DNA of 64,000 nt from Candidatus Latescibacterota bacterium (GTDB lineage: Bacteria; Latescibacterota; UBA2968; GCA-2709665): contig CBDDDZ010000004.1 of NCBI GenBank assembly GCA_965226795.1, forward strand, positions 608,001-672,000, in the 5' to 3' direction. The position numbers and the translations under genes are program-made. Below, piece by piece: positions 41,575 to 46,275 of this stretch; the first letter of the stretch is position 1, and the number at the start of each line of letters is the position of its first letter. The notes below the pieces were generated by a model. That model saw only the letters and a list, made by a program, of their open reading frames with translations, made no database searches and had not been told where the DNA came from.

Positions 41575-43380
41575 CTATTTCCCTTTATCGCCAGCGCTTC
41601 CACCCTCGGCAAAAACGACGCCATTCCGTTTCCTGTTGACATTCAGTACGACGACCTGACTTCCGGAAAGCACATAGTCCGTGGGAATTCGAGCCCTTTG
41701 CACAACGGTCTGCAGAACCCGTTTTACCGCATCCGACGAACGGGAAAACTGAAGCACCGAAAGCACCGAGGACGGCAGCCTTGACACCTCCCGTCCCTCG
41801 ATCGTCACTCCCAGGGCGCCGGACAGCAACTCAACGACCATCTCGTTGTTCCGGCCCACCCGCCCCAACAGGCGGATAAGATGATCCAGATCTCTGGCAT
41901 TATATTCACCCGGCGCTCGCTTGGCCTCCTGTTTGCCGTGGGCGGATGCGCTGGAAACCCTGAGAATCAACCGGCCGCCCGGTGTTTGATTCGGAATGAC
42001 CAGCGCCTCCTGCACTTCCTCCAGGCCGCCCCAATAGGGCTTTAAAGAAACCGTGACGCGCACCGTATCGCCAGGCTGGAACGATGTCTTCTGCAAACCA
42101 ATTGACTTGATGCGGGCAGTGTGCGCCCGCTCAGCTTCAACATCCAGGTCGAAGGTAACCCGCTCGATCTTAACCGGCTCAAATGGATTCCGGATCAGCT
42201 TTGCAAGCGGCGTGGTAACCCCCAGCACGGCATTACTCAGCCCCAGCGGTCCGGCATAGACGTTTTCGGCCTCCACTGATGGACGTCCGTTCAGGTCAAT
42301 TCGCACACGGGACTTCACCGTTACCTCTCCCGTCAGCTTCTCGGACGAAATCATCGCGCTGAATACCGCCATTCTCAACAGAGTGGGGCTGAGATCGCGG
42401 TTTCGCAGAACCTCCATCCGGAACTGCGCCTGCTTGCCCGGGGAACGCAAATTGATCTGCGCCGGCATCATGTCCACCTCGAGGCCGATGGTGCCCGCTA
42501 TGCCGGGCGCGCGGTCCTGAACGATGGCACCTATGGTTTCCCCGACCACACCCAGCTTGAAGGACGCGTATTGACTGGGCAACACTTCGTGAATATAGGC
42601 TGCCGTCATCGGCAACGCCGTGGCGCCGCCGAAAATCATGGAATGCCCGAAACCGACCACGCGGTCTCCGTCGCGATGGGTCAGCGTTCCGATTCCCGTA
42701 ACGCTGAGATCACCACGTACCAGCTGCACACCCATGGCTGCGCCCGGTTCGAACGCACCTGAAGGCAGACCAGGATCCATTCCACCTCCGCCCTGAACCG
42801 GCGTCCATCCCATCCTCGAAAATTCATGTCGGAATTCAGCCACCGCCTGCCGTGCGAAACCGGAGATCACGATCGGCAGGCTGATCGGCGTCAACTCAGC
42901 CGCATTCATCCCCGTCAGATCGACCAGACGGCGCGCGCCGGTTTCCGTCAATCGGGCCGCCGAACTGACGCCCTCTGGCGCTGATGGTCGATTGAACAGA
43001 TCAACCATGGCCGCGATTGGCGTTATCCCGGCGATGGGTTCTTTAGCAAAGGCGCCAACTCGATACGATACCGCTCCTACCAACTTACCATCGATATAAA
43101 CCGGGCTGCCGCTCATCCCCAGGATCACCCCTGTATTCGACAGGGGGCCGCCGGACAGCCGGGCGAGAATCAGGTCGCTTCGTGGACCGATCGCGTTGTG
43201 CAGCACACCCAGGATTTCGACCTGAAACGTATCGATCCGCGTGCCCTGGAAGACCGTCCGGCCGATACCCCGCATGCCTCTCCGGAGCTCTTCGACGGGC
43301 ATGGTCGCCACGGTCCCCCAGGAATTGCCGACAATTATGCCCGACAGCAAAGCGGGGAGCGTTATTTTCAGTAGGCGCAT
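41575..43380 (-). CDS. SpoIVB-like peptidase S55 domain protein
   Basis: GRTVFQGT, GMSGSPVYIDGKLVGAVS, GITPI, FGH; real start ATG 43380. Confidence 0.88.
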   Translation of the reverse strand: MRLLKITLPALLSGIIVGNSWGTVATMPVEELRRGMRGIGRTVFQGTRIDTFQVEILGVLHNAIGPRSDLILARLSGGPLSNTGVILGMSGSPVYIDGKLVGAVSYRVGAFAKEPIAGITPIAAMVDLFNRPSAPEGVSSAARLTETGARRLVDLTGMNAAELTPISLPIVISGFARQAVAEFRHEFSRMGWTPVQGGGGMDPGLPSGAFEPGAAMGVQLVRGDLSVTGIGTLTHRDGDRVVGFGHSMIFGGATALPMTAAYIHEVLPSQYASFKLGVVGETIGAIVQDRAPGIAGTIGLEVDMMPAQINLRSPGKQAQFRMEVLRNRDLSPTLLRMAVFSAMISSEKLTGEVTVKSRVRIDLNGRPSVEAENVYAGPLGLSNAVLGVTTPLAKLIRNPFEPVKIERVTFDLDVEAERAHTARIKSIGLQKTSFQPGDTVRVTVSLKPYWGGLEEVQEALVIPNQTPGGRLILRVSSASAHGKQEAKRAPGEYNARDLDHLIRLLGRVGRNNEMVVELLSGALGVTIEGREVSRLPSSVLSVLQFSRSSDAVKRVLQTVVQRARIPTDYVLSGSQVVVLNVNRKRNGVVFAEGGSAGDKGK

Positions 43381-43468
43381 CACGACACAGACCCTTTCTC
43401 GTAAAACAGTATTGAAGCCACGGAATCTACGGTGCGCCCTCAAAAAAGTCAAGCATTGCCACGTCCTA

Positions 43469-43620
43469 ATGTTCTGTCCCGGAAATAGATTGCCGAAATC
43501 AGGCCGACGAGTCGCCCGGCTCGCAAGGCACTTGAGCGAGGCGACCTGCGCAAGGTCGGAAACGCAGCGAGACGGGATGAATCGACGTAAAAACGGTGAT
43601 ATCTTTCCGGGACAGAACAC
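43469..43620. mobile_element. MITE-like repeat, copy 3 (best conserved TIRs)
   Basis: 16-bp perfect TIR TGTTCTGTCCCGGAAA / TTTCCGGGACAGAACA. Confidence 0.88.
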
Positions 43621-43734: not shown

Positions 43735-44205
43735 ATGCAGATCATGTTGCTGGCGGTTGGCAAATGCCGCAAACCTTACCTGCGAGAAGGAGTGTCGGAC
43801 TATATCAATCGCATCCGGAGATACGCCAGCCTGGAGCATATCGAACTGAGAGAGGAACGGACCCCCAGGAAGGGCGCCACGCCGAGTGGCCTTTGCAGAG
43901 AAGGCGAACGCATCCTCCGAAAACTGCCGGAAAACGCTTTCCTTGTTGCCCTGGATCCGACCGGAGACACCTGCAGTTCCGACGCCCTCGCCCGGCGTAT
44001 CCAGAGAATCGGTATTGAGGGCATGCGCCGAATCGTGTTTGTGGTTGGCGGCCCCTCCGGCCTTTCCTCCCCGGTTATCCGGCGTGCCGACTGGCGCCTT
44101 TCGCTTTCTTCCTTCACCTTTCCACACGAAATCGCCCGTCTGATTCTCCTTGAACAGATTTACAGGGCATTTACCATTATGCGCGGCGAACCGTATCACA
44201 GGTAG
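43735..44205 (+). CDS. rlmH: 23S rRNA pseudouridine1915 methyltransferase
   Basis: VGGPSG, TFPHEIARLILLEQIYRA, PYHR. Confidence 0.96.
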   Translation: MQIMLLAVGKCRKPYLREGVSDYINRIRRYASLEHIELREERTPRKGATPSGLCREGERILRKLPENAFLVALDPTGDTCSSDALARRIQRIGIEGMRRIVFVVGGPSGLSSPVIRRADWRLSLSSFTFPHEIARLILLEQIYRAFTIMRGEPYHR

Positions 44206-44274
44206 TCGCCGCCACATACAGACCCTTTGCAACGCGGGAAGAATTCAGGCCGTACATTTCCGGCAGTCTGCAGA

Positions 44275-44517
44275 AACAAAAAGCCCGGAAAACAGGTTCA
44301 TCCGACAGCCGTGGAGAGATGATTCCGCCACTGGAATCCGGCTGCCGCGAACGTCTCCTGTTTCCGGGCTTTTTAAATGCGGACTGAAATGCCTAAATAT
44401 ACAGTTTCGGGGGAATGGGAGAAATCCGAATCCGACAACCACGGTGAACGGCCGGAGGGGTATCGGCCCGAGGGGTGCCGGAAGAAGGGTTGTCTCAATC
44501 GCATGCCTTTCCAGAGC
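44275..44517 (-). ncRNA. Candidate structured small RNA
   Basis: Own promoter, three C-rich-loop hairpins and a long terminal hairpin ending in a U-run; see findings. Confidence 0.5.
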
Positions 44518-44523
44518 AATTGA

Positions 44524-44552
44524 AAGATAAGCCATTGTTTTTTTTTAGTCAA
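44524..44552 (-). promoter_or_regulatory. sigma70 promoter with no annotated gene downstream
   Basis: TTGACT-17 bp-TATCTT with AT-rich upstream DNA. Confidence 0.6.
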
Positions 44553-44922
44553 GGGTAAGTTTGTCCTAATATACTGTTTTACATTATCTTGTGGTCTCCA
44601 CGTCGTAACATACCTTAATATATGGATTTTTGCGCGGCGAACCCTCGAAAACCGCATATCGCGTCGCTGGCCGCGAAGGGATTCCCGGATTCGCCTGACA
44701 ACTTCGCCACTTCCCGCCATACCTTATTCTCTGACGATTTCGCAATATCGTCTCCGTTCAATATCGCCACTTCGAGCGAGGAAGGCGGACGTTGCAACCT
44801 CAGGCGTCGAGAGATACTTCTGGACAGGTTCCCTGTTCGGCGCTATCTTCGATGCTCGGTGAACGGAATCCGGTCCTTACATATCCAGCTCACAACCTCT
44901 TCTTCTTCGACGCGATTTCCCC

Positions 44923-46275
44923 ATGCCACATACCCTTACCATCACACAGGCAGCAGCGGAAATCCGGGCGGGCCGTCTTTCTCCCCTGGAGCTTCTACAC
45001 GCCTGTTTTTCACAGATCGACGCCCTCGACAGCCGCCTGCACGCATGGGTCATCGTCGACAGGGAAGGGGCCGAGAATCGCGCACGGCGTCTTCAGGAGG
45101 ATCTCGCCTGCGGCCGGTACCGCGGTCCCATGCACGGAATCCCGGTGGGGATTAAGGACATCATCAACACGAAAGGCTTGCCTACCGCCGCCGGAGCAAG
45201 ACACCTTTACAACATGGCACCGAAGGAAGACGCAACCGTGGTTGCCCGCTTGCTCCGCTCCGGGGCGATCATCCCCGGCAAAACGGTTACCACGCCCTTT
45301 GCATGTTTCGATCCGGCGGAAACCAGGAACCCCTGGAACCCTGATCATACCCCCGGCGGCTCCAGCAGCGGATCCGCCGCCGCGGTCGCGGCGCGTATGT
45401 GTCCCGCCGCCTTGGGGTCCCAGACCGGCGGCTCCATCAGTCGTCCCGCCGCGTACTGCGGCCTCGTGGGTCTCAAACCCACCTTTGGCCGGATCAGCGT
45501 TTATGGGATCCTGCCCGTCAGTTATGAACTGGACCATCCGGGTCCGTTCACACGGTCAGTCGCCGATGCAGCCGTCATCCTGGAGAGCCTGGCCGGGAAA
45601 GATCCGCTGGATCCGCTCAGCACCGACGTTCCTGTTGGGAAATATCGCATCAACCCGTTGACGCGTCCGCCCCGAATCGGCATTATCCGTACATACTTCC
45701 CTGAAAACGCCGACGAAACCATGCGTGCAGCGACCCACTTTGCAACAAGCCGTCTCGACTCCGCCGGCGCCGAATTCACCGACGTGCACATGCCCGGATC
45801 CTTTGCGGAATTGCACGAGAACCACGCCCTTCTGCTTGCCGTCGGCGCGGCAAGCGTTCACCGGGAACGATATGACGCGCACCGCGACCGCTTTCCGCCC
45901 GGCCTCAGCGAAATAATCGAAAGGGGTCGCGCCGCCAGCGCCGTCACCTACGCCGATGCACGACGCCACCAGATTGCATTCAAATCGGAGGTTCTCGCTG
46001 CTTTCAAGGGCGTGGACCTGCTCCTCACCCCCGCAACGCCCACACCGGCTCCGTCAGGCCTGACATCCACCGGCAACCCTGCCTTCAACAGCCCCTGGAG
46101 CTACGCCGGCCTTCCCACGATCGTCCTGCCGGCCACGTGTACCCCCGGCGGACTGCCCGCCGGAATCCAGCTGGTTGCCCGCCCCTTCGCCGAAGCCCGC
46201 CTGCTCTCTATCTCCGCCTGGTGCGAAACCCACCTCGAGTGGACCCGCACTCCATCGAATCTATCTGGCAATTAG
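44923..46275 (+). CDS. Amidase-signature family enzyme (GatA-like)
   Basis: GIKD, GGSSSGS, GSQTGGSI. Confidence 0.92.
   Translation: MPHTLTITQAAAEIRAGRLSPLELLHACFSQIDALDSRLHAWVIVDREGAENRARRLQEDLACGRYRGPMHGIPVGIKDIINTKGLPTAAGARHLYNMAPKEDATVVARLLRSGAIIPGKTVTTPFACFDPAETRNPWNPDHTPGGSSSGSAAAVAARMCPAALGSQTGGSISRPAAYCGLVGLKPTFGRISVYGILPVSYELDHPGPFTRSVADAAVILESLAGKDPLDPLSTDVPVGKYRINPLTRPPRIGIIRTYFPENADETMRAATHFATSRLDSAGAEFTDVHMPGSFAELHENHALLLAVGAASVHRERYDAHRDRFPPGLSEIIERGRAASAVTYADARRHQIAFKSEVLAAFKGVDLLLTPATPTPAPSGLTSTGNPAFNSPWSYAGLPTIVLPATCTPGGLPAGIQLVARPFAEARLLSISAWCETHLEWTRTPSNLSGN

Follow-up and report, generated by a model that had tools for sequence, protein, structure and literature searches.

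Regulatory RNAs that titrate a protein, such as CsrB, RsmY and RsmZ, carry the motif found in the leaders of the target mRNAs and thereby bind the protein that reads it; in these RNAs the motif is GGA and is repeated, and known decoys generally repeat their motif many times. Among other RNAs with which a C-rich transcript can be compared, the cuckoo/CcsR RNAs have tandem hairpins with CCUCCUCCC loops, and 6S RNA forms a rod of some 180 nt that opens on both sides into a central bubble. Conserved unpaired UCCC motifs are the hallmark of RsaE of Staphylococcus and Bacillus and its relatives (PMC2790875) and of the 6C RNA of Actinobacteria, whose C-rich hairpin loops contain six conserved C (PMC6486639), and in the available excerpts of these papers most described UCCC-motif RNAs act by pairing. 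Rho, for its part, binds C-rich, G-poor, untranslated RNA, typically at a single-stranded rut site, and attenuates long leaders including its own; small RNAs alter its access by pairing with an mRNA, and the excerpt available describes none as a Rho decoy (PMC6582626).

Here we analyze a locus in a 64,000-nucleotide stretch (the window) of the genome of a Candidatus Latescibacterota bacterium (G000). The locus is a real, uncatalogued, order-wide RNA gene of Latescibacterota, which by the tests applied here falls outside the 6C, cuckoo, RsaE, Csr and 6S families and may work like RsaE or CsrB. The features referred to below are as follows (window positions).

41575..43380, minus strand, SpoIVB-like (S55) peptidase gene (PF05580), past rlmH
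43452-43424, minus strand, promoter-like site of the S55 gene itself
43735..44205, plus strand, rlmH (SPOUT methyltransferase; PF02590), convergent neighbour of the RNA gene
44273..44517, minus strand, predicted RNA of about 245 nt, with its putative start at G 44517
44278..44374, minus strand, 3' domain, a long hairpin (~97 nt) with a covarying outer stem
44305..44345, minus strand, near-invariant core GCAGCCG-GAUUC / GAAUC-AU-CUCUCC-nn-GGCUGU with a one-sided bulge
44313-44318, minus strand, CUCUCC bulge, kept in 35/35 sequences
44373..44504, minus strand, 43-codon ORF, not a conserved gene, no Pfam match
44375..44517, minus strand, 5' module, variable in length, weakly folded, C-rich
44406..44430, minus strand, C-rich tract (third hairpin of the first-pass annotation), tract conserved, closing stem weak
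44450..44468, minus strand, CCCC-loop hairpin GGCCG-AUACCCCUC-CGGCC, about 50 nt after the start
44524..44552, minus strand, sigma-70-type promoter TTGACT-17-TATCTT with conserved spacer AAAAAC-AATGGC-T
44923..46275, plus strand, amidase gene, other flank of the RNA gene

The first-pass annotation had proposed a stand-alone, minus-strand non-coding RNA driven by the TTGACT-17-TATCTT promoter at 44552-44524. This promoter is present and conserved in the order, and the other elements named, i.e. GACAACC/GGTTGTC, two ACCCCTC motifs, UUCGG..CCGAA, the hairpin at 44278-44374 with its U-run and the ORF at 44373-44504, are all in the sequence. Conservation, the promoter pattern, covariation and the G-U pairs all give such a gene good support. 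Neither TTGAC nor the 17-nt spacing nor the T-A-n-n-n-T of the -10 box changes among 46 distinct homologues, whereas the middle of that box varies, as expected of a working sigma-70 promoter. The spacer positions AAA.AC...GGC are invariant in the same 46, which suggests that the spacer may hold the site of a regulator. A G lies seven bases past the -10 box in 43/46 homologues, making G 44517 the likely transcription start, and the RNAs predicted from it range from 219 to 338 nt. The 3' domain folds better on the minus strand in 38/46 homologues and G-U pairs are kept there (one pair is G-U in 32/35 sequences), which fixes minus as the sense strand. A small protein or dual-function RNA made from the 43-aa ORF had been given as the alternative. 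GGAAAGG does lie upstream of this ORF in the window, but a start at that place followed by 41-43 codons is kept in 5/46 homologues, within one genus and in differing frames, and no conserved ORF exists on either strand of the element in the 46 homologues; this explanation is largely refuted and we give it almost no credence.

A regulon defined by the promoter spacer was considered and rejected, as no second good site exists in G000 and six metagenome sites precede an ArsR-like gene without a C-rich leader. A promoter with a near-identical spacer also stands before an ArsR-like gene in another taxon at L131, L137 and L143, with no C-rich leader. Separately, ATACTGTTTTAC occurs exactly twice in G000, at window positions 44559-44571 (plus strand) and 43401-43412 (minus strand), beside the promoter-like sites on the amidase side and the S55 side; the pair is possibly a shared operator.

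Assembled contigs of four metatranscriptomes, which carry no strand, ends or level, were aligned to the locus with the RNase P locus as control. In one (X1), an exact contig covers 43745-44425 at depth 37 (neighbours 16-18), and in another (X2) one contig spans the locus at depth 44. The RNase P control gave short exact pieces at about 4000 and 15000 against flanks at 67-266, although these pieces may be shared with relatives. For both reasons the contigs prove nothing either way; if anything, they hint weakly that the RNA falls short of RNase P RNA in abundance in these metatranscriptomes.

A DNA search recovered the element from 48/61 relatives, the matches falling into one block at the promoter and another at the core of the 3' hairpin; promoter and hairpin are both conserved across two families. 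The promoter pattern occurs in 52/53 genomes of one Latescibacterota order and in 0/115 other genomes, while a covariance model of the 3' domain matches 47/49 genomes of the order and 0/102 others (a sample of 151), at one place per genome. Among species genomes the 3'-core pattern gave 39 matches, mostly labelled Latescibacterota and 37 of them with promoter and stem; L034 and L050, with neither, were dropped as chance. Outside the order, promoter-plus-hairpin patterns picked up just a tmRNA (G080) and one doubtful leader (G149) in 115 genomes, and two patterns gave 0 matches in viral contigs. The promoter was also matched 22 times in metagenomes: 13 matches have the 3' hairpin, 1 is the leader of a CARDB-type gene, 1 is interrupted by an insertion, 6 precede an ArsR-like gene without the C-rich module and 1 lies on contig L147. 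This contig has the promoter, the hairpin and C-rich tracts, and its OsmC protein has Nitrospirota-named relatives; it is one uncertain case, in which rearrangement or mis-assembly is possible because the facing pgpA gene is truncated on the contig. In G000 the element is single copy, being neither a multi-copy repeat nor an IS remnant, as the first reading had cautioned it might be, and the SRP RNA, RNase P RNA and tmRNA sit at other places. No Rfam family matched the RNA at E<=5 (the best weak match, to suhB, scored 25.9 bits against a gathering threshold of 41) and none matched in nine homologous or paralogous loci either, consistent with an uncatalogued RNA. No description of it was found in a search of the main texts of openly accessible papers.

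The S55 peptidase gene is the steadiest neighbour (42/44 oriented loci, some of these being one genome fetched twice), and the genes upstream of the RNA differ from genus to genus. A search with the rlmH query of the window found no rlmH in four genomes (G015, G016, G019 and G034) that all retain the RNA element. Together with the steadier S55 gene, this indicates that rlmH is a neighbour and not part of the element. Truncated or frameshifted rlmH genes also occur beside an intact element in a few genomes (L010/G002, G024, G008). Between the S55 promoter and the start of rlmH, at window positions 43466-43620, lies a REP/MITE-like inverted-repeat element of ~160 bases with 108 blastn matches in G000, 40 of them of at least 80 bases, and with remnants in some pyrH-like leaders.

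What is best conserved in the RNA is the 3' hairpin's core, including the CUCUCC bulge, a feature that the first-pass annotation had not singled out. In the alignment of 35 sequences of this domain 96.9% of cells are paired, 9/21 pairs show two-sided change and 0/500 shuffles reach the covariation score, bearing out the structural conservation for the 3' hairpin even though the alignment leans towards its model and contains related sequences that are not independent. The outer stem covaries; the core stems and the bulge, above which there are just 5-6 pairs, hardly change. Folding gave the 3' hairpin a z of -6.8 in the window and a median z of -5.4 in 24 homologues, and the whole unit in the window a z of -2.5. 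Only one other exact match exists in G000, of 13-14 nt and to the 3' strand of the core. A core that is near-invariant in both strands and has no long complement in the genome fits recognition by a protein or by tertiary contacts better than a long pairing target.

In most homologues an A-run precedes the hairpin and a U-run follows it, so that it is likely also a terminator for both directions, and the end of rlmH is 67 bases away in the window. These features would suit a two-way terminator for rlmH combined with antisense transcription that controls rlmH or continues into the S55 operon, but the element is intact in the four genomes without a detected rlmH, a terminator has no need of an invariant core, and the S55 gene has its own promoter-like site; we regard termination and antisense action as the whole function as quite improbable. 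Even less probable is a missing 6S-type RNA that binds RNA polymerase. The 6S models RF00013 and RF01685 match nothing in G000, and a long hairpin with a conserved unpaired part is present here; unlike the 6S rod, however, this is a hairpin of ~97 nt with a one-sided bulge and 5-6 pairs above it, RF00013 and RF01685 do not match it, and another locus near accA folds as a rod of ~200 nt. The latter lies downstream of accA at C5:1867445-1867645 of G000.

In contrast to the invariant 3' domain, the 5' module is variable in length and weakly folded (113-243 nt and a median z of -1.3 in 24 homologues). Its median C/G skew is 0.18, compared with a mean of -0.04 over 199 G000 leaders. Two YYCCC tracts are present in the 5' part of the window, a level reached or exceeded by 26/199 of these leaders. 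Three C-rich loops had originally been read in this region, and the middle one is a conserved hairpin: it is paired in 15/15 genomes of the genus, most relatives carry it as CCGAU-UCCCC-AUCGG, and a CCCC-loop hairpin was found at this position in 38/46 homologues vs 10/1139 promoter-like control sites. The first and third loops did not hold up in the same 15 genomes, where the first ACCCCUC hairpin has 64% of cells paired and the third hairpin 80%, with one of its five pairs broken in 12/15. The enclosing GACAACC stem fared no better, with 81% of cells paired vs 88% for a competing UCCGGCA/UGUCGGA stem and covariation in neither. C-rich loops are shared with the cuckoo/CcsR RNAs, but the CCUCCUCCC-loop modules of the latter are absent from the RNA and no Rfam match links the two. 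The resemblance to 6C RNA likewise extends to C-rich hairpin loops and a chaperone-poor host; here, however, there is one conserved loop with four C instead of six, and 245 nt with a separate 3' domain in another phylum, with no Rfam match.

Much the same C-rich front also stands at the head of mRNAs. In ten genomes the promoter occurs a second time, facing away from a TLC-translocase-like gene. The leader behind this second copy has UUCCCC tracts and hairpins with C-rich loops but not the 3' hairpin, and in most of the ten it leads, after about 160-270 nt, to a gene encoding a large secreted protein whose domains are of the CARDB, NHL or dockerin type. A CCCC-loop hairpin occurs within the first 140 nt in 9/10 of these leaders vs 5% of 1139 controls and, by the stricter test, at the RNA's own position in 4/10 vs 10/1139. 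Among the folded leaders, L117, L119, L120 and L122 have their CCCC loops open and more than 100 nt from the start codon. The CARDB-type locus is absent from G000, and its leader is not independent evidence, as it probably arose by duplication of the RNA's 5' part. A pyrH-like gene (PF00696), found by scanning G000 leaders, has a promoter unrelated to that of the RNA and carries CCCGAU-AUCCCC-RUCGGG at +41 to +50 in 6/15 genomes of the genus; any CCCC-loop hairpin is present in 8/15 genomes of the genus and in 2/15 loci of other genera. Both stem and loop match the RNA's hairpin, which is more than pairing by the loop alone requires. This gene (G000 C5:454189-455176, L154) is found in 52/53 genomes of the order, outside the usual operon and upstream of purD- and purE-like genes; its long C-rich leader is restricted to one genus.

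Beyond these, few G000 leaders carry the hairpin. At L185, a receiver-domain gene, and at L212, the hairpin and UCUCCCC tracts lie 37-58 nt past a -10 box. The hairpin pattern occurs at about 100 sites outside the known loci; of 40 that were fetched, most are in reading frames and 2 are clear leaders, one of which precedes a receiver-domain gene. The leaders of the two cold-shock genes of G000 do not have the CCCC-loop hairpin. These two leaders (L226, L227) share a block of ~45 bases, TTTCTGTCTCCT.TGCAGTC ... GGCAAGGATCAGAAGTTCCGGTCCTTGCC, possibly a new cis-regulatory hairpin.

Our preferred explanation, held tentatively and at somewhat less than even confidence, is that the RNA is a decoy for a factor that reads C-rich mRNA leaders. 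The C-rich 5' module would copy the leader element of several mRNAs and bind the factor reading them, and the RNA, if transcribed as predicted, would titrate this factor; the invariant 3' hairpin would terminate and stabilize the transcript while serving as a second site for sequence-specific binding. We propose a decoy and not only a blocker of ribosome-binding sites because the C-rich front half also heads several unrelated genes. The logic is that of CsrB and the Rsm RNAs, with the difference that the motif is C-rich and in few copies and that CsrA was not found in G000. As in a protein decoy, the motif is common to the RNA and to mRNA leaders, the binding itself being predicted. Several observations count for this reading: the second promoter copy in ten genomes heads a similar leader, mostly with a secreted-protein gene; the pyrH-like leader matches stem and loop under an unrelated promoter; L185 and L212 also carry the hairpin and tracts; the CCCC loops of L117, L119, L120 and L122 are open; the 3' core is nearly invariant; and Rho is widespread in the order and has a C-rich leader in G000, where the usual chaperones were not found. 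Counting against it, the pyrH hairpin is restricted to one genus, G000 lacks the CARDB-type locus and has few leaders with the hairpin, and the 5' part in the window has just 2 YYCCC tracts, where known decoys have many copies of their motif; the CARDB-type leaders could release paralogous pairing RNAs; and the precedent of the UCCC-motif RNAs, most of which pair in the excerpts available (PMC2790875, PMC6486639), weighs the same way.

A serious contender, to which we also give clearly less than even confidence, is a chaperone-independent pairing RNA of the RsaE/6C type, whose CCCC loop, tracts and CUCUCC bulge would block G-rich ribosome-binding sites and whose look-alike leaders would be paralogues or duplicates. 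With RsaE (PMC2790875, in the excerpt available) the RNA has in common its own promoter, a 3' hairpin with a U-run, a host in which Hfq was not found and unpaired UCCC-type motifs, here the CCCC loop and the CUCUCC bulge, that sit where conservation is strongest; it differs in the recurrence of its module in mRNA leaders and in the length of its 3' hairpin, whose bulged core is invariant, and the RsaE family model gave no Rfam match. Pairing is further favoured by the failure to find either Hfq or ProQ in G000, and CUCUCC is the exact complement of GGAGAG. Upstream of 3465 crude gene calls GGAG occurs in 24% and GGAGAG in 1.4%, and start regions pair better than their own reverse complements, as is expected of any anti-Shine-Dalgarno sequence. 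On the other hand, mRNA leaders carry the module in sense orientation, in one case behind a promoter unrelated to that of the RNA, and this is not expected of an RNA that acts purely as an anti-Shine-Dalgarno sequence; conservation extends from the loops to the stem sequences; and of the three loops first proposed only the middle one is kept. Target prediction, suggested with the original annotation, did not help, since the best match to the bulge, upstream of clpC, is present in 1/30 loci, and clpC was rejected as a bulge target. Mimicry of the 16S rRNA 3' end was likewise dropped, its score being reached by 5% of 4000 control windows ending in CCTCC. In G000 at C3:440325 (minus strand), the ribosome-binding site of a CDP-alcohol-phosphatidyltransferase-like gene lies in a hairpin loop, AUGGGGAAUGC, with an 8-base complement to the CAUUCCCC tract of the RNA; this was seen in a single genome.

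Overlapping with both the decoy and the pairing explanations is an unlikely one in which the 5' module is a cis-acting gate only, an attenuating and probably Rho-dependent leader, and all activity resides in the ~97-nt 3' hairpin, which, like the CARDB-type genes, would be produced or set free only while the gate stands open. The weakly folded, length-variable 5' part next to an invariant 3' part would fit such a gate, as would the protein gene preceded by the same promoter and leader and the fixed distance of the hairpin from the start, but the leader is retained in genera where the second promoter copy was not found. Much less probable is a sponge, in which the C-rich loops of the mRNA leaders are targets of a G-rich small RNA soaked up by the RNA described here: a scan of G000, outside long ORFs, for promoter-proximal hairpins with a GGGG loop yielded neither a stand-alone candidate nor a cluster. 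The Bacteroides FopS RNAs are not sponges according to the excerpt available (PMC11697453).

If the RNA is a decoy, which protein might read the leaders? Hfq (PF17209), ProQ and CsrA gave nothing over cut-off in G000, although in the CsrA search (PF02599) the control matched in 3/14, and KhpA/B appeared under cut-off only. RRM proteins, over cut-off in 7/53 genomes of the order, were rejected as the RNA's partner on account of that distribution. Rho, encoded at C5:1102002-1103237 in G000, is over cut-off in 50/53 genomes and is the leading candidate reader of the C-rich leaders, although even granting the decoy its role is doubtful; a cold-shock protein (two such genes are present in G000) or another protein are alternatives. 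In 199 crude promoter-defined G000 leaders, that of rho ties with dnaE- and dnaA-like leaders for most YYCCC tracts and has the highest C/G skew of the three, the names of the genes other than rho being read off protein starts. Regions upstream of rho are C-rich in 28/30 loci (skew 0.14-0.44, some coding bases included); GCCG-U(U/A)CCCUC-CGGC, which is close to the RNA's hairpin, is present in 3/30 and any C-rich-loop hairpin in 7/30. Composition alone is weak evidence for Rho. As compared with Rho-attenuated leaders and rut sites (PMC6582626, in the excerpt available), the 5' stretch is alike in being untranslated, richer in C than in G, weakly folded and 110-240 nt long; it differs in preceding a non-coding hairpin in addition to mRNAs and in containing a conserved hairpin itself. 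That the best-kept 5' feature is a hairpin, whereas a typical rut site is single-stranded over 60-80 nt, counts against the Rho version, as does the presence of a C-rich-loop hairpin in no more than 7/30 regions upstream of rho. An elaborate form of the latter, which we think rather unlikely, is that Rho loads on the structured 5' module and thereby attenuates surface-protein and other genes, and that the RNA is both Rho-gated, reaching full length only when Rho is limiting, and a decoy drawing Rho away from those leaders; termination by Rho would then be under a self-reinforcing RNA switch. A hint that the module is present outside the phylum as well comes from one Nitrospirota-like contig.

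The regulatory RNAs of uncultured bacteria of the FCB group are nearly unknown, and the usual RNA chaperones were not found in G000. An RNA and promoter kept across a whole order, with a leader module in common with surface-protein genes, supply a defined motif and ready reporter constructs. Should the RNA do no more than pair with ribosome-binding sites, it would add a new family to a known class. Should it titrate a protein that reads C-rich leaders, it would be a C-rich counterpart of the Csr system, and if Rho, for which we found no RNA inhibitor described in the literature, were that protein, a global termination factor would be under inhibition by an RNA.
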